Under the pieces are notes generated by a model. The model saw only the letters and a list, made by a program, of their open reading frames with translations. It did not search any database and was not told where the DNA came from. A program made the position numbers and the translations under genes. A stretch of DNA of 64,000 nt from Clostridia bacterium (GTDB lineage: Bacteria; Bacillota; Clostridia; JAAYHZ01), in assembly GCA_050950825.1 (NCBI GenBank), contig JBMNIH010000002.1, forward strand, positions 96,001-160,000. Reading direction: 5' to 3'. Shown in pieces: positions 2,079 through 6,283 of this stretch. How positions within the stretch are numbered: the first letter of the stretch is position 1; each line of letters begins with the position of its first letter.

Positions 2079-2335
2079 GTACGAACGGATCCGAGAAAAA
2101 ATTATTATGTAAACAACAAAAAAGGAACATTTGAATGAACTGCTAATAGAGTTGAAAAAAAATCGGGTAGGAGACTACTCATTAATTGAGTAGCCGTCCT
2201 CCCACACCACCGTACGTACCGTTCGGTATACGGCGGTTCAACAAGAGTTCAATTTCTTAAGCAAGTTCAGCTATAAAGCCAGTGTATCCGCGCTTCTGAA
2301 GGCGCTCGTTCGTAATGGTTTGTGAAAGTATGGGG

Positions 2336-3727
2336 CTATTGGCAATTCTCCAGTAGCCTTTTCTTGTATTGGCAAATTTCCCTCCAGTAGCCTTTTCTTG
2401 TATTGGCAAATTTCCATGCTTTCTGTCTGTCCAATCCCAGTTTCACTAGATTTTGAAAACGGGTACGGATTTTCTTCCATTGTTTCCAGATACACATTCG
2501 CAGTCGCCTGCGTGTCCATTCATCCAGTGAACGTGCGAGAGATTTCATGTCCGCAATTCTGAAGTAGTTGACCCATCCTTTGATGAGTTGCTTTATCTTC
2601 TGCAGGCGAACGTCTATACTCACCCCGTTGCTCCTTGATGTTATGTTGCGTATCTTTTCCTTTAATCTCTCTACGGACTTTTTGTGTACCCGGATTCTCA
2701 CGCCTTCTTTCCCGTGATAGAATGAGAATCCAAGGAACTTTCTCTTCCACGGTCTGTCAACCGCGCTCTTCTCGCGGTTAACTCTTAACCTCAGTTTTCC
2801 TTCCAGAAATTTAGTGACACTCTGCATCGTGCGTTCAGCCGCTTTCCTGCTTCTCACATAAATATTGCAGTCATCAGCATAACGGCAGAATTTATGTCCC
2901 CTCTTCTCCAGTTCTTTATCCAGTTCGTTCAGCATAATGTTGCTTAACAGGGGACTGAGTGGTCCGCCCTGTGGGCATCCTTCTTCAGTTTCGATTACGA
3001 CCCCGTTTACAGTTTCGATTACGACCCCGTTTATCATGACGCCCGCTTTCAGATATTCCCGGATAAGCTTCAGTACCCTCTTGTCTTTTACCCTCCTTGC
3101 CACCAGCGCCATGAGTTTATCATGGTTCACAGTATCAAAATATTTCGCAAGGTCGATGTCCACTACCCAGTCATACCCTTCATTTATATATCCCTGTGCT
3201 CTTTTTATTGCTTGGTGAGCACTTCTTCCCGGCCGAAATCCAAAGCTGTTCTCCGAGAATTCAGGGTCAAATATGGATGCAAGTACTTGGGCAATGGCCT
3301 GCTGAACCATCCTGTCGACTACCGTGGGAATCCCCAGTAACCTGACTCCTCCGTCCGGTTTCGGTATCTCCACTCTCCGAACGGGCTTGGGACGATACGT
3401 CCCTGCCTTCAATTCCCCGATTAGATTATTGCCCTTCTCTTTCAGGTATGGCAGAAGTTCATCCACCTTCATACCGTCAATTCCATGGGAGCCTTTGTTC
3501 CTTACCACCTGTTTATAGGCAGCGTTCATGTTGTTTCTACTCAATATCTTCTCGAGCAAATCAAAGGTACTTACTTCTCCATTGTCCTGTCCGTTTGTTT
3601 CCGCCGGAAGGGTTCTCCGCACTCCTCTCCGCACTCCTGCCATATCTCGGGGTTCCACCCCTGCCTCTGGCAGGTAGTCTTCATATGAAGTTGTCTGCTC
3701 TCTACAAATCCTTCCCGAGTCCTTCAA
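2336..3727 (-). CDS. ltrA: Group II intron reverse transcriptase/maturase (no endonuclease domain); C-terminus frameshifted by a 34-bp duplication
   Basis: RT motifs IPKPDGGVRLLGIPTVVDR, DIDLAKYFD, GCPQGGPLSP, RYADD; domain X GWVNYF...RRRLRMCIWKQWK. Confidence 0.93.
   Translation of the reverse strand: MKDSGRICREQTTSYEDYLPEAGVEPRDMAGVRRGVRRTLPAETNGQDNGEVSTFDLLEKILSRNNMNAAYKQVVRNKGSHGIDGMKVDELLPYLKEKGNNLIGELKAGTYRPKPVRRVEIPKPDGGVRLLGIPTVVDRMVQQAIAQVLASIFDPEFSENSFGFRPGRSAHQAIKRAQGYINEGYDWVVDIDLAKYFDTVNHDKLMALVARRVKDKRVLKLIREYLKAGVMINGVVIETVNGVVIETEEGCPQGGPLSPLLSNIMLNELDKELEKRGHKFCRYADDCNIYVRSRKAAERTMQSVTKFLEGKLRLRVNREKSAVDRPWKRKFLGFSFYHGKEGVRIRVHKKSVERLKEKIRNITSRSNGVSIDVRLQKIKQLIKGWVNYFRIADMKSLARSLDEWTRRRLRMCIWKQWKKIRTRFQNLVKLGLDRQKAWKFANTRKGYWREICQYKKRLLENCQ
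2348..2415. repeat. Perfect 34-bp tandem duplication in the RT 3' end
   Basis: ctccagtagccttttcttgtattggcaaatttcc at 2348-2381 and 2382-2415. Confidence 0.95.
2986..3033. repeat. Perfect 24-bp in-frame tandem duplication in RT
   Basis: cagtttcgattacgaccccgttta at 2986-3009 and 3010-3033, giving NGVVIETVNGVVIET. Confidence 0.95.
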
Positions 3728-4144
3728 TCTTTCAGAACCTCCTGTTGTTCGGCCCTTCCGCTCCGTTCATGACCGCTGCGTACTATGGCCTCTGCTGACT
3801 TCTGACCGTTCAGCCGTACATTGCTGCACGGGTTGCCTTGTGGAAGTTCATCCGACTCAGCGTACCGGTCAGATCTCCGCGGGTAAGCGCGCGCCCCTTC
3901 ATCCCATATACCTGCTTCATTTACACCGCAAGCCTCGGATAGCATTGGACTTCGTTTTGTTATGCAAACTCGTCCGACTTGCATATGCCTCATATGAAGT
4001 TCCTGTTCGTCAGGCCGGGATTTTGCCTCCGACTTCCTTCAGATTCCACCTCACGATGGACACCCTTGTCTTTGGCTAACGGTTGGTGCTATCAACCCCC
4101 GTAACGGACTTTCACCGTCAAGGTCGCGCGCATGCCGCGCGCAC

Positions 4145-4181
4145 ATAAAAAAGGTATATCAAGTATAAAACTTGATATACC
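4145..4181 (-). terminator. Intrinsic terminator of the mscS-ParB gene; intron IIC target site
   Basis: Minus strand GGTATATCAAG-loop-CTTGATATACC followed by TTTTTTAT, then the intron GTGCG. Confidence 0.88.
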
Positions 4182-4197
4182 CGTCTTAACGGAATTT

Positions 4198-5427
4198 CTA
4201 ATGTTCTTTGCTGTCTCGAATATCGGATTTTTCTCCTTGGATAATGGCCGGGATTGTTCTCCATCCTAATCGTTTACATGCTTCATAGCGCAAGTGACCG
4301 GCCAATATTTCATAGGTTCCTTTAATCGGATTTCTATTCAGCAAAATCGGCTGCAGGAGTCCTTGGGTGGAAATGCTTTCAATAATCGGCTCAAGCTCCG
4401 CATAATCCACTTTCAAATCCGGTTCTTGGATATGGGACATATCGATGTCCTGAATATGAGGCATGCTTTTATGCTTGCTGGCGTCCGCTTCTTTACGTTC
4501 CGCTCCGGCTTTCGAAGAATATATATAAGGTATGGCCATATCCACATTCGGATTATTCTGAAACTCTTGGAATATCATCTTGTTGATATTATACGATATT
4601 TCCGCTCTTCTCTGTACTTGGGTTTGGTATCGTAATCTCAAATAAACCCCGTAATCATACAGGTCGGATCGTATGTAGGGCTCGCTGCCTGTTTTCTCGA
4701 TGATCTCTTTTGTTACCTGTCTTGCAGCATCCAATAGAATCCGCTCCGCCGTCTTCCAGTCGGAATCATATGTGATACGAATAACGACTTCGTCCAGCAT
4801 ATATGCCGCTTCCTGTTTTACCGTATAGTTGATGACTACCTGATTAAATAGCATGGCGTTCGGAACCAATATGTATCGGCCTACGGCTTCTTCACTTCCG
4901 ATGCTACCTCCTACTTGGTCCAACCGGGTGTACATCGCGCCGATGTCCTTTACGTCACCTACCAGTCCGAGGGAAGGGAATTGTATACGATCACCCGGTC
5001 GGAAAGGTCTTTTTACCGATACAAGAATCCATGCGGCAAAACCACTGACAGGAGCTTGCAAGGACCAACCTAAAAGCATTCCGCCGAACATAGCAAAGAA
5101 ATCGCTGAAGGCTTTTAACTTTCCGAATGCAAAACCGATGCTTAAGATCACCGCAAAAAAAGCTATCAGTTTGTAAAGGCGTGATAACATCATCCCTTCC
5201 GCTATGGGTTTTTGCTTTGCTTGCATCAACCAAACCGTAACAACCGTTAACAGAAACGTTGCCGCTAAAATCAAAGCGACATTCATAAACATTCGGGGAA
5301 TCGTAATACCGGATTCTAATACTTGCCAATCAAACGGAAGGTAGTTTTCTGCCGCAAAAAAGACAACCGCAACCGCAGCGGAAATTGCCAGCGAAACTAT
5401 CGTTTTCTTTTTAAATTGATTCTCCAT
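4198..5427 (-). CDS. MscS-family mechanosensitive channel fused to a C-terminal ParB/Srx-like N-terminal domain
   Basis: N-terminal TM helices, MscS core (LLGWSLQAPVSGF...KRPFRPGDRI...GDVKDIG...VPNAML), charged linker, then IIESISTQGLLQPILL...YEILAGHLRYEACKRLGWRTIPAII. Confidence 0.85.
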   Translation of the reverse strand: MENQFKKKTIVSLAISAAVAVVFFAAENYLPFDWQVLESGITIPRMFMNVALILAATFLLTVVTVWLMQAKQKPIAEGMMLSRLYKLIAFFAVILSIGFAFGKLKAFSDFFAMFGGMLLGWSLQAPVSGFAAWILVSVKRPFRPGDRIQFPSLGLVGDVKDIGAMYTRLDQVGGSIGSEEAVGRYILVPNAMLFNQVVINYTVKQEAAYMLDEVVIRITYDSDWKTAERILLDAARQVTKEIIEKTGSEPYIRSDLYDYGVYLRLRYQTQVQRRAEISYNINKMIFQEFQNNPNVDMAIPYIYSSKAGAERKEADASKHKSMPHIQDIDMSHIQEPDLKVDYAELEPIIESISTQGLLQPILLNRNPIKGTYEILAGHLRYEACKRLGWRTIPAIIQGEKSDIRDSKEH

Positions 5428-5462
5428 AAGCGTACCTCATCTTTTTAAGATTAGCTATATTT

Positions 5463-5491
5463 ATTATATATTTTAAACTTCGCATTGACAA
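5463..5491 (-). promoter_or_regulatory. sigmaA-type promoter of the mscS-ParB gene
   Basis: TTGTCA-17 nt-TATAAT on the minus strand, about 35 nt upstream of the ATG. Confidence 0.6.
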
Positions 5492-5641
5492 CCGGCTGAA
5501 TGAAGGGTTGAAGATATAGTATAAAATATCCTTGCTTCCAAAAATATCTATATCATGAAAGCAAGGATGAGGGTTCGACGGATTGTATTCTTGCCCAAAT
5601 TCCGAGTTACGAAAACAGTAAAAGGCATAAATTACATCTTT

Positions 5642-6283
5642 TTATATCTTCGTATACCCGTCATGAAAAACAATGGCATCCAGCTTACGACCTTCTTTAC
5701 ACATTTCGCAATCCTTCGGGTCAAATAACTTGTACCCGGGAATATCTTCGCTCGTAAACAAAGAGTGAATCTTTTGGGTGAGTTTTTCCGGATAAGCATT
5801 GAATAAAGCGGAAATCCATGCAAGCCGGCCCCCGTAATAGGACAAAAGCTCCAAAATACCGTTCACCGTTATTCCCGTCGATATGGACGATATGAGAAGC
5901 AGTACGTTTTGATTGAAAACCATTTCTTTTACATTGTCCTGAAACATTAATTTTCTGTGGATATTATTCAGCGGCGTCACAACATGAATATCTTTTCCGC
6001 TGTTAATGACGGATGTTCCCGATTTTCGGAGTTCGTCCGCCATATAGGCACCTATAACCTCCGTTCCTTCGATACAAACAATGGTATCGATCGGAGTCGC
6101 GGCTAAATAAGGGGTTATTAATTCTACAGCTACCTCTTTGGCAATCCGTGCATTTGTTTTTAGATCACACAGATCAAGATAATAATTCAGATGGGAGTGG
6201 CTGGTCGTAAAATGCCCGGGTATCACTCTGACGGCAATGGACGGATTTCTTGTCAACGAGATTTTAAAGCTCCGTCTTTCCAT
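5642..6283 (-). CDS. Type I phosphoribosyltransferase-fold protein (PyrE-like) with degenerate PRPP loop
   Basis: GHFTTSHSHLNYYLD hood motif, VLLLISSISTG at the PRPP-loop position, C-terminal CEMC. SD GGAGG. Confidence 0.65.
   Translation of the reverse strand: MERRSFKISLTRNPSIAVRVIPGHFTTSHSHLNYYLDLCDLKTNARIAKEVAVELITPYLAATPIDTIVCIEGTEVIGAYMADELRKSGTSVINSGKDIHVVTPLNNIHRKLMFQDNVKEMVFNQNVLLLISSISTGITVNGILELLSYYGGRLAWISALFNAYPEKLTQKIHSLFTSEDIPGYKLFDPKDCEMCKEGRKLDAIVFHDGYTKI

Follow-up and report, generated by a model that had tools for sequence, protein, structure and literature searches.

Can a domain of the ParB/sulfiredoxin (Srx) fold serve as the cytoplasmic input of a mechanosensitive channel? 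The question is raised by a gene in the window (the whole stretch of 64,000 nucleotides analysed here) that combines, in a single chain, an MscS-type channel, a disordered linker and a ParB/Srx domain without a helix-turn-helix (HTH), an architecture that proved to be real and conserved across many phyla. MscS-like channels that carry extra domains are believed to have functions beyond the emergency release of pressure, and almost none of them has a known input; the ParB-CTPase fold is described as a versatile NTP-binding module that has been recognised only recently. If the tail of the protein binds nucleotide, these two fields would be linked, with a simple test system at hand (one gene, no partners, 184 species); if it is only an adaptor, the gene would be a modest addition to MscS diversity.

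A channel gene with a ParB-like tail

The gene and its parts are arranged as follows:

4198..5427, minus strand: coding sequence of the MscS-ParB_N fusion (P0001), a single intact ORF of 409 aa plus stop
5463..5491, minus strand: sigma-70/sigmaA-like promoter candidate, TTGTCA-17 nt-TATAAT, 11 of 12 matches, with the -10 box ending 36 nt 5' of the ATG
4152..4182, minus strand: intrinsic terminator, a 13-pair hairpin followed by TTTTTTAT (T-run)
5011..5427, minus strand: predicted membrane part, aa 1-139 (DSSP on the AlphaFold2 model; HMM alignment)
4522..5010, minus strand: predicted cytoplasmic cage, aa 140-302 (PF00924, weak PF21082, Foldseek, alignment insertion, invariant columns)
4453..4521, minus strand: flexible linker, aa 303-325 (YSSKAGAERKEADASKHKSMPHI), with pLDDT below 50 over aa 303-321
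4237..4452, minus strand: minimal ParB/Srx-fold domain, aa 326-397 (PF02195, profile against PDB, tail model, Foldseek)
4348..4362, minus strand: C-motif (Box I) loop GLLQP, aa 356-360 (conservation in 193 members; literature motif definitions)
4288..4299, minus strand: P-motif (Box II) GxxR, here GHLR, aa 377-380 (conservation in 193 members)
4276-4278, minus strand: codon of C384, the sole cysteine of the protein, 3' of GHLR (translation; conservation)
4198..4236, minus strand: variable C-terminal extension of 12 residues, aa 398-409, plus stop (the Pfam match ends before it)

Translation agrees with the uninterrupted 409-aa ORF of the initial annotation, which had named no strand, and places it on the minus strand. 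The same annotation had credited the gene with a sigmaA-like promoter and a terminator of its own. The terminator hairpin is borne out, and a promoter-like site is present as well; the latter call rests on position and not on statistics because such sites are as frequent in shuffled sequence as here (mean of 3.9 against 4 seen, i.e., no excess). RNA-library contigs cover the gene at 4183-5700 (run X15), 4190-4751 and 4731-5442 (X16), and 4190-5234 (X18). Contigs of these three runs end at 4183-4190, near the terminator, and in X16 one contig ends at 5442 and the next begins at 5486, with a transcript start possibly lying between them; both are weak hints. As originally noted, there is no parA in the window, all seven PF13614 matches in the genome being located on other contigs.

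The channel part had been described as a complete MscS with TM helices, beta domain and alpha/beta domain, and this description stands. MS_channel_2nd (PF00924) matches aa 127-202 with an E-value of 2.7e-10 and 40.6 bits (cut-off 20.2), and although the match of MS_channel_3rd (PF21082; aa 213-291) scores 13.6 bits, under the cut-off of 21, the whole-protein AlphaFold2 model (pLDDT 82.2) matches E. coli MscS (5aji) over ~300 columns with a Foldseek E-value of 5.7e-13. DSSP assigns to the membrane part of this model four predicted helices (aa 2-29, 43-70, 75-100 and 104-124) and TM3b (aa 126-139). The pore helix GGMLLGWSLQAPVSGFAAW aligns with GLAVGLALQGSLSNLAAG of E. coli MscS in the 9h2v chimera (HMM alignment); the Gly/Ala-rich TM3 is followed by RPFRPGD, compared with RPFRAGE in E. 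coli MscS, and these columns are invariant or nearly so. Among 51 sequences, G116, G120, Q124 and P126 of the pore are invariant, with M117 and W121 present in at least 90 %. The cage consists of a beta domain with a family-specific insertion (QVGGSIGSEE), an alpha/beta domain and a terminal conserved strand, D-x-A-I-P-Y-x-Y-S. The core is unusually conserved, with 63-74 % identity over aa 40-305 to matches named from other phyla. By fold, beta domain and pore motif, as judged from sequence and model, the protein is a member of the MscS family. Only one further mechanosensitive channel is detectable in the genome (97 % completeness), and no MscL was found there, so the protein probably matters to the organism.

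Across 193 members, the linker is 16-46 aa long (median 23) with a median net charge of 0. The domain that follows matches ParB_N (PF02195) over aa 326-397 with an E-value of 6.8e-13 and 48.9 bits (cut-off 26.3), covering profile positions 9-78 of 95, and comprises ~72 aa in beta-alpha-beta-beta-alpha-beta topology. Comparison of the tail profile with PDB retrieved Noc (4e-20), ParB (~1e-15), and SerK, Srx and SbnI (~1e-6). The tail-only model (pLDDT 87.7) produced Foldseek matches to ParB, Noc, KorB, Srx, SerK and SbnI with E-values from 2.8e-7 (ParB-CTPgammaS, 7bnr) to 5e-4, and its match to A. thaliana sulfiredoxin (6ky4) has TM-scores of 0.74/0.74 and an rmsd of 1.5. Profile and structure concur with the assignment to the ParB/Srx fold that had been made from motifs, and the motifs then quoted (QGLLQPILL, YEILAGHLRYEACKRLGW, IPAII) are all found in the translation.

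Two motifs stand out in the tail, following the definitions of the C and P motifs of ParB folds (Jalal et al. 2021; Kaljevic et al. 2025). The Box I helix (aa 342-355) leads into the GLLQP loop, which in ParB-CTPase folds makes contact with the base and the residues of which are kept in 189 (G), 186 (L), 182 (L), 181 (Q) and 192 (P) of the 193 members. In the GxxR motif, correctly read as GHLR from the start, G377 is present in 192 members and R380 in 187 (Q in 3, K in 1, gap in 2). One clade (L032, L035, L051, P0277) has Gln for Arg, and L027 has Lys. Two forms are tail-less (L060 and P0302). Purifying selection acts here on precisely the pair of motifs by which nucleotide recognition is defined in ParB folds of the non-canonical kind.

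PF02195, the fold, the C motif and the GxxR P motif all place the tail within the ParB-CTPase (ParB/Srx) fold, and the tail lacks the hallmarks of a canonical ParB/Noc CTPase clamp, namely P-motifs 1 and 3, the HTH, the C-terminal dimerisation domain and a ParA partner. In profile and HMM alignments a 4-residue gap lies opposite NRFQPR of Noc, where P-motif 1 would be; P-motif 3 (Box III) is absent: the Pfam match reaches only position 78 of 95, and the chain stops 12 residues further on (the extension past the ParB fold measures 0-42 aa, median 13, in the 193 members). The equivalent of the catalytic-candidate Glu of GERR (E102) is His here (His in 129 and Glu in 8 of 193 members), so no hydrolysis is predicted. 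C384, four residues past the Arg of GxxR, is kept in 185 members, with V, A, G and Y as rare substitutes. Neither HTH_ParB nor any other HTH family is among the four Pfam families matching at E<=1, as the initial annotation had it; this, together with the mild acidity of the tail (median net charge of -1 in 193 members), argues against DNA binding.

Occurrence and genomic context of the fusion

The two domains, both above their Pfam cut-offs on the one chain, recur far beyond this locus. Relatives are encoded by 184 species genomes, both Pfam domains are present on all of the 120 best full-length relatives, and identity across phyla is 54-84 %. Of 1205 matches at E<=1e-20 obtained with the channel core only, the best 120 were inspected, and 110 of these carry both Pfam domains. 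A near-identical stretch recurs in DNA from 14 runs (13 studies) and in RNA from 6 runs, and contigs from three RNA runs (metatranscriptome) bridge the junction between channel and tail. The proviso that the fusion might be unique to one assembly can be dropped, and, as far as can be judged from these sequences, the fusion is more than chance.

The gene was found in 5 of 61 genomes of the same class. In a quick tree of 79 rows (SH-aLRT support only, with 20 of 76 forks open), phyla cluster without forming single clades: 23 label changes are required, against a minimum of 13 and a shuffled mean of 44.7. The distribution thus appears patchy, and we claim nothing further on HGT or mobility. No operon partner was detected among clustered ORFs of at least 70 aa from 80 loci. 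The largest non-self neighbour cluster, an ABC-transporter family, is present at 15 of the 80 loci, at distances of 115 to 4872 nt and on either side. Because no neighbour gene is conserved, any regulatory input is probably built into the chain itself.

A tail-only phmmer search against 1.84 billion representatives gave 4097 matches at E<=1e-3, of which 26 reach E<=1e-10. There is no clear stand-alone tail among the eight short top matches that were inspected: P0124, P0131, P0133 and P0141 begin in the terminal strand of the cage and are C-terminal fragments, P0122 and the tail of P0063 are identical, and P0123, P0132 and P0146 begin with a Met upstream of the domain. PADLOC pointed to no known anti-phage defence protein; its sole match (12.3 bits, E 0.013) links the ParB part to a methyltransferase model.

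Finally, an archaeal sister family (P0273, P0274, P0275, P0280, P0282 and P0289, from Thermoproteota and Bathyarchaeia MAGs by source names) has the same special core, with QVGGS(I/V)GSEE, PYVRSD-YDYG and VDFAIP-IYSY, and holds in common with the fusion the strand AIPxIYSYKRG and a similar linker; P0274 shares 45-48 % identity with the protein of the window. In this family, the cage module is tandem-duplicated (two alignments, P0274 aa 5-297 and 299-480) and ParB_N is replaced by a CxC...CxxC zinc ribbon (PF13240/DUF7577, sub-threshold matches). The presence of a zinc ribbon at the same position favours a swappable or generic adaptor and weakens a specifically nucleotide-based reading of the tail.

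Possible roles of the tail

Our preferred reading, held tentatively and with somewhat less than even confidence, is that the tail may be a non-hydrolysing nucleotide-binding sensor on the channel cage. The gene would encode an expressed MscS-type channel standing on its own and presumably heptameric, like every solved MscS homologue. Below the cage, each subunit would go on into a flexible linker of ~23 residues and then into the 72-residue minimal ParB/Srx domain. In the manner of PadC or sulfiredoxin, this domain would bind an NTP, with CTP and ATP as candidates, via the GLLQP loop and the Arg of GxxR. The loaded and the empty tail would affect the cage or gate differently, through the opening threshold, inactivation or portal access, and solute release would thereby be coupled to the nucleotide or precursor status of the cell. 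The conservation of both pocket motifs is consistent with such a sensor (181-192 of 193 members for GLLQP, 187 for the Arg), as are the joint inheritance of core and tail (110 of the 120 best core-only matches), the lack of a conserved neighbour gene, and the acidic, HTH-less tail, which speaks against DNA binding. Orphan ParB folds offer precedents: 11 of 28 purified ParB-fold proteins are reported to bind CTP, ATP or GTP, NTP binding is lost when the Arg of GxxR is changed to Ala, GLLQS is among the loops found in CTP binders, and Box III is often absent (Kaljevic et al. 2025). Folds of the size of Srx have been solved with ATP or ADP bound (1xw4, 3cyi), and in Staphylococcus aureus cellular K+ falls only if a ParB-like gene is expressed jointly with mscS (10.64898/2026.05.29.728642). 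Against a nucleotide sensor stand the missing P-motif 1 and P-motif 3/Box III, the 17 of 28 surveyed ParB folds reported to bind nothing, the Gln clade and L027 (Lys) at GxxR, the tail-less L060 and P0302, and the zinc ribbon of the sister family.

Several of these observations also fit a nucleotide-independent adaptor that uses the ParB fold as a scaffold and docks to the cage, to neighbouring channels or to some other partner. The swap for a zinc ribbon indicates a modular position, variants without a tail persist alongside the R-to-Q clade, and NTP binding was not observed for those 17 purified proteins (Kaljevic et al. 2025). However, the best-conserved residues of the tail are the pocket motifs, some of which are also fold-core positions, rather than a separate surface patch, and no conserved neighbour gene presents itself as a partner; we regard an adaptor as possible but doubtful. 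A complex prediction of three cage copies (aa 127-305) plus the tail (aa 322-400), run without controls, gave scores of 0.01 and 0.00, compared with a mark of 0.32, values that weigh on neither side of the docking question.

Returning to the putative nucleotide sensor, one may ask whether the tail is a true CTP/NTP receptor gating or licensing an MscS-type channel, with ParBL-MscS of S. aureus as the split form of the same device. On the sequences and reports at hand, we consider this unlikely. If true, this would be the first instance of a ParB-CTPase fold governing an ion channel, and ParB-fold control of turgor and K+ release would be widespread in bacteria, perhaps reporting the CTP-dependent supply of envelope precursors.

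A ParB-like CTP switch, in which tail-tail dimerisation (N-engagement) within or between heptamers clamps or clusters channels, is quite improbable. The nearest solved relatives of the tail are indeed the CTP-binding N-domains of Noc (4e-20) and ParB (~1e-15), and GLLQP resembles the loops of reported CTP binders. However, CTP in ParB is sandwiched by alpha1-alpha3 and alpha3' of the partner, with dimerisation through a swap of alpha3/alpha4 (Jalal et al. 2021), and the tail ends before alpha3. Because the helices that form the CTP-sandwich dimer are absent, a canonical CTPase switch appears unlikely, and the tail would at most be a PadC- or Srx-like binder. The tail also lacks the catalytic candidates, the Q58 segment being deleted and the E102 equivalent being His (Glu in 8 of 193), and seven tails cannot all pair.

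The close fold match to sulfiredoxin (6ky4, TM 0.74/0.74, rmsd 1.5), the profile matches to SerK, Srx and SbnI (~1e-6), and a cysteine conserved four residues past the GxxR Arg (185 of 193 members) might point to an enzyme, i.e., sulfiredoxin-like activity or SerK/SbnI-like phosphotransfer on a substrate at the channel. This appears highly improbable. The catalytic cysteine of sulfiredoxin sits inside its G-C-H-R phosphate motif, a signature that the tail does not match, having GHLR at this place and its only Cys four residues past the Arg; SerK and SbnI depend on a second domain, which the fusion lacks. C384 was considered as a redox or catalytic residue and rejected: it aligns with Val/Ala of Noc, which suggests a packing position, and its substitutes V, A, G and Y fit a buried helix position. 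Least tenable is the view that the fusion arose in assembly or gene calling, or is a remnant in decay, devoid of function: the relatives all come from metagenome-assembled genomes and the Pfam model of the alpha/beta domain stays under its cut-off, but the intact frame, the strongly conserved columns, the spread over 184 species genomes, the 54-84 % identity across phyla, the recurrence in DNA (14 runs, 13 studies) and in RNA (6 runs), and the junction-bridging contigs of three RNA runs refute this reading as far as sequence data allow.

Comparison with known channels and ParB-fold proteins

Literature searches found no paper describing an MscS-ParB fusion, in keeping with the remark in the initial annotation that no characterised example was known; nor is a membrane channel among the fusion partners in the main text of the ParB-fold survey (Kaljevic et al. 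2025). With E. coli MscS and YnaI (5aji, 2oau, 9h2v), the fusion shares its pore helix, its beta and alpha/beta domains and the strand at the end of the cage. It differs from E. coli MscS in an extra N-terminal helix, which makes four helices before TM3b, in Met and Trp in place of the two constriction leucines, which we take to be L105 and L109, in the 9-residue insertion of the beta domain (QVGGSIGSEE), and in the C-terminal linker and ParB-fold domain.

The bCNG channels follow the same design, with an MscS-like core and a nucleotide-type ligand domain at the cytoplasmic end. Their appended fold is cNMP-binding, whereas that of the fusion is ParB/Srx, and no cNMP-binding family is among the Pfam matches of the fusion at E<=1. 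In a 2026 review, bCNG is the only nucleotide-type MscS fusion named, its role is given as unknown, and its occurrence is mostly in cyanobacteria; the fusion is found mostly in anaerobic uncultured lineages.

Functional coupling of a ParB-like protein to an MscS-type channel has been reported for parBL-mscS of S. aureus (SAUSA300_0361/0362), where intracellular K+, c-di-AMP and oxacillin resistance fell only when both were co-expressed (Shah, Kanampalliwar and Bae 2026, bioRxiv 10.64898/2026.05.29.728642). There, the two are separate genes, with parBL first and annotated as a putative regulator, in contrast to the single chain seen here. Such pairing is not general: among 20 Bacillota MscS regions picked from 150 listed (origin-proximal or with an ORF of ~295 aa), a ParB gene lies within 4 kb of mscS in only 2, both in the noc-soj-spo0J origin cluster of one genus.

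Among ParB-fold proteins, the N-domains of ParB, Spo0J and Noc (7nfu, 7ol9, 6sdk, 7bm8, 7bnr) have the same fold and are the closest sequence relatives of the tail. In contrast to them, the tail has no P-motif 1, Box III, alpha3/alpha4, HTH or C-terminal dimerisation domain, carries GHLR in place of GERR, has no ParA partner nearby, and is located at the C-terminus. PadC (6ryk) and sulfiredoxin (6ky4, 1xw4, 3cyi), which are ParB/Srx folds that bind nucleotide without the ParB CTPase cycle, illustrate what the putative sensor might resemble. Sulfiredoxin and the tail are equal in size (TM 0.74/0.74), and sulfiredoxin has its catalytic Cys in GCHR. PadC, which lacks equivalents of Q58 and E102 and is described as having no noticeable CTPase activity (Jalal et al. 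2021), is a bactofilin-bound recruiter of ParA, unlike the channel-linked tail. Neither PadC nor sulfiredoxin is attached to a membrane channel, whereas the ParB/Srx domain of the fusion is joined through its linker to the cage of one.

The fusion gene and its occurrence

The channel gene is a single unbroken ORF of 409 aa, as described in the initial annotation, which omitted its strand (minus, 4198..5427). Two Pfam domains lie above their cut-offs on this one chain, MS_channel_2nd (40.6 bits, cut-off 20.2) and ParB_N (48.9 bits, cut-off 26.3), confirming the observed MscS-ParB_N fusion; the MS_channel_3rd score is under its Pfam cut-off, and in NCBIfam the Noc/ParB and MscS models match at the domain level only, each scoring far short of its whole-protein cut-off. 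The reported absence of an HTH (none in Pfam at E<=1) and of a ParA-type gene from the window (all 7 PF13614 matches of the genome are on other contigs) holds, and the proposed promoter and terminator were both found. The region has no excess of promoter-like sites over shuffles (4 versus 3.9), and the promoter is therefore inferred from its position.

Features of the fusion gene and its surroundings (window coordinates unless stated)
5491..5463, minus: promoter-like site TTGTCA-17-TATAAT, 11/12 match
aa 2-29, 43-70, 75-100, 104-124, 126-139: predicted helices (AF2 model)
5065..5079, minus: Met117-Trp121 (aa 117-121)
aa 127-202: MS_channel_2nd (PF00924)
4867..4896, minus: QVGGSIGSEE insertion, acidic, family-specific (aa 178-187 region)
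aa 326-397: ParB_N (PF02195)
4276..4278, minus: Cys384
4182..4152, minus: terminator, 13-pair hairpin plus T-run
2336..3727, minus: reverse-transcriptase ORF of the group II intron
3888-4060, 3752-3835, 2162-2238: Rfam matches of the intron
4183-5700: RNA-library contig, run X15
4190-4751 and 4731-5442: RNA-library contigs, run X16
4190-5234: RNA-library contig, run X18
Contig C10 of the same genome, 136409-136678, 137313-137582, 154243-154524: ParB-family genes

Directly after the T-run of the channel-gene terminator, a group II intron encoding a reverse transcriptase (about 2150..4144, minus strand) begins with GTGCG. Its first 265 nt occur in five identical copies in the genome (also loci L112-L116), all directly behind a stable hairpin and T-run, and RNA-library contigs show the same terminator-intron junction at another copy. 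Such placement is the terminator targeting of bacterial class C introns and is known biology.

The fusion is real and widespread, not unique to this assembly. Of the full-length relatives, each of the 120 best (54-100% identity) has both Pfam domains; MAGs of Planctomycetota, Brocadiia, Anaerolineae, Elusimicrobiota and Firmicutes are among their named sources. Scanning a single genome for each species yielded 254 pattern matches, 184 encoding a relative, from which 80 loci were kept (at least a dozen phyla, all MAGs), and in the ESM Atlas two clusters (114 and 58 members) combine the two domains. Near-identical copies of the window's stretch turned up in 13 studies (14 DNA runs, from bioreactors and sludge; the source sample may be among them) as well as in 6 metatranscriptome runs. 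The junction is spanned as well: RNA-library contigs of three runs (X15, X16, X18) bridge the linker-coding nucleotides 4453-4521 and end at 4183-4190, the start of the terminator; those of X20 break within the linker, at 4478-4480, and leave it unbridged. Since DNA can contaminate RNA libraries, these contigs are supporting evidence, short of proof, for expression of the fusion gene.

Of 61 genomes in the window's class, 5 carry the gene: the two of its own genus, another from the same family and two that are distant. In a quick tree of 79 rows, the window groups with two Clostridia MAGs (support 100) and phylum labels cluster but not as single clades; a patchy distribution with some transfer is weakly supported. 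The 80 loci share no conserved neighbouring gene, and the fusion gene is therefore a one-gene device.

The channel core and its archaeal sister family

The protein belongs to the MscS family. In its AF2 model (51-row alignment, pLDDT 82.2, pTM 0.45) the helices are followed by the beta and alpha/beta domains, a low-confidence stretch (aa 303-321) and a beta-alpha-beta-beta-alpha-beta tail (pLDDT 93-97); chains of E. coli MscS match this model at E 5.7e-13. HMM alignment with the MscS portion of a solved chimera places GGMLLGWSLQAPVSGFAAW of the window protein opposite GLAVGLALQGSLSNLAAG; Met117 and Trp121 fall at the two constriction-leucine positions of E. coli MscS (L105 and L109), and the beta domain has, relative to E. 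coli MscS, the 9-residue insertion QVGGSIGSEE. The columns of both features are invariant or nearly so in the family alignment, and a tryptophan ring at the gate would be unusual. Only two PF00924 genes were found in the genome, the other at C2:24826, and MscL (PF01741) was not found in this 97% complete genome.

When the core alone (aa 40-305) was scored, the search returned 1205 hits at E<=1e-20. Among the best 120 of these, 110 have both Pfam domains and 7 are archaeal (P0273, P0274, P0275, P0276, P0280, P0282, P0289; source names Thermoproteota and Bathyarchaeia). The archaeal proteins carry a tandem duplication of the beta/alpha-beta cage module, seen in P0274 as two alignments to the window protein (aa 5-297 at 45% and aa 299-480 at 48% identity), and six of them end in a CxC...CxxC zinc ribbon in place of the ParB domain; P0276, labelled partial, is without it. 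Because these proteins share the core and have another tail, the unusual, highly conserved core constitutes a subfamily of its own, and the occurrence of either tail on one core indicates that the small domain behind the AIPxxYS strand is exchangeable. This argues against co-evolution of the special core features with the ParB tail.

The other three of the best 120 are P0277, with a degenerate tail (GxxR R-to-Q, ParB_N at E 0.0032), the tail-less P0302, and P0296, the gene of locus L063 read out of frame, with the tail intact in another frame. The R-to-Q variants (L032, L035, L051, P0277) form one clade, and L027 has Lys instead of the GxxR Arg. Tail-less L060 is nested among tail-bearing rows of the tree, and its tail loss is therefore secondary. 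The R-to-Q clade, the Lys sequence and the two tail-less forms could act as natural controls.

The ParB-fold tail

The window protein also falls within the ParB/Srx fold superfamily, though it is no canonical ParB. With a profile built from 44 tails, the best matches were the N-domains of Noc (E 4e-20) and ParB (about 1e-15), followed by SerK, sulfiredoxin and SbnI at about 1e-6. The tail-only model (pLDDT 87.7) matches ParB-CTPgammaS 7bnr (E 2.8e-7) and Noc, and aligns with A. thaliana sulfiredoxin 6ky4 over nearly the whole length of both chains (TM 0.74/0.74, rmsd 1.5). Together with the Pfam score, these matches bear out the ParB-like tail originally proposed.

The ParB phosphate motifs are defined as P-motifs 1-3 and the C-motif is alpha1 plus the alpha1-beta2 loop (Jalal et al. 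2021), or the Box I helix plus loop, with GxxR as the P motif and Box III often missing from orphan ParB folds (Kaljevic et al. 2025). Among 193 distinct members, the C-motif loop GLLQP is kept (G 189, L 186, L 182, Q 181, P 192), as are the Gly (192) and Arg (187; Q 3, K 1, gap 2) of the P motif. Unlike canonical ParB, the tail lacks P-motif 1 (a 4-residue gap opposite NRFQPR of Noc), the Glu of GERR (His in 129/193, Glu in 8/193) and everything from Box III/alpha3 onward; of the nucleotide motif proposed earlier, the GxxR itself stands, whereas its canonical companions are missing. The only cysteine, Cys384, four residues past the GxxR Arg and kept in 185/193 members, occupies a position that is Val or Ala in Noc, and may serve in packing or present a thiol beside the pocket. 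With a median net charge of -1 and a pI of about 6.1, the tail core is mildly acidic; the linker measures 16-46 aa (median 23), and binding of DNA or membrane by charge is unlikely. Three canonical-length ParB-family genes (ORFs 282-285 aa) lie on C10, one adjoining a Soj/ParA gene at C10:153410.

Possible roles and comparison with known systems

The interpretation given in the initial annotation is partly supported. We tentatively favor, at somewhat less than even chances, a non-hydrolysing nucleotide sensor on the channel cage. A nucleotide-independent adaptor is a somewhat less likely reading, to which the archaeal zinc ribbon swap at the tail position lends real weight. A ParB-like dimerisation switch is improbable: ParB CTP is sandwiched by alpha3 and alpha3' and the dimer forms via an alpha3/alpha4 swap (Jalal et al. 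2021), and with alpha3 onward absent from the tail the canonical clamp cannot form. An enzymatic tail is very improbable, and an artefactual fusion, given the 184 species genomes, is scarcely credible; the remaining probability is kept for mechanisms not thought of. The closest functional parallels are PadC, reported to show no noticeable CTPase activity (Jalal et al. 2021), and sulfiredoxin. The fusion is easy to test and deserves a biochemical look.

Among 20 hand-chosen Bacillota MscS regions, a ParB gene lies <=4 kb from mscS in two, both the origin cluster of one genus (L103, L104), where mscS is directly downstream of noc-soj-spo0J; this origin-proximal arrangement resembles the S. aureus parBL-mscS region. 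At L092, mscS adjoins ychF.

The main text of a ParB-fold survey is without the terms mechanosensitive, MscS or channel, although its supplements may list the architecture (Kaljevic et al. 2025), and the available text of an MscS review of September 2026 names bCNG as the nucleotide-type fusion, with no mention of ParB. Our literature search returned no paper pairing PF00924 with PF02195 and, for MscS and ParB, one relevant paper among the matches listed, an S. aureus preprint (10.64898/2026.05.29.728642). According to this preprint, parBL (SAUSA300_0361) and mscS (0362) share their regulation, K+, c-di-AMP and oxacillin resistance fall only when both genes are expressed together, and the biochemical role of ParBL is described as unknown. 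In S. aureus the ParB-like protein and MscS are encoded by two separate genes; in the fusion, an MscS channel and a ParB-fold domain lie on one chain.
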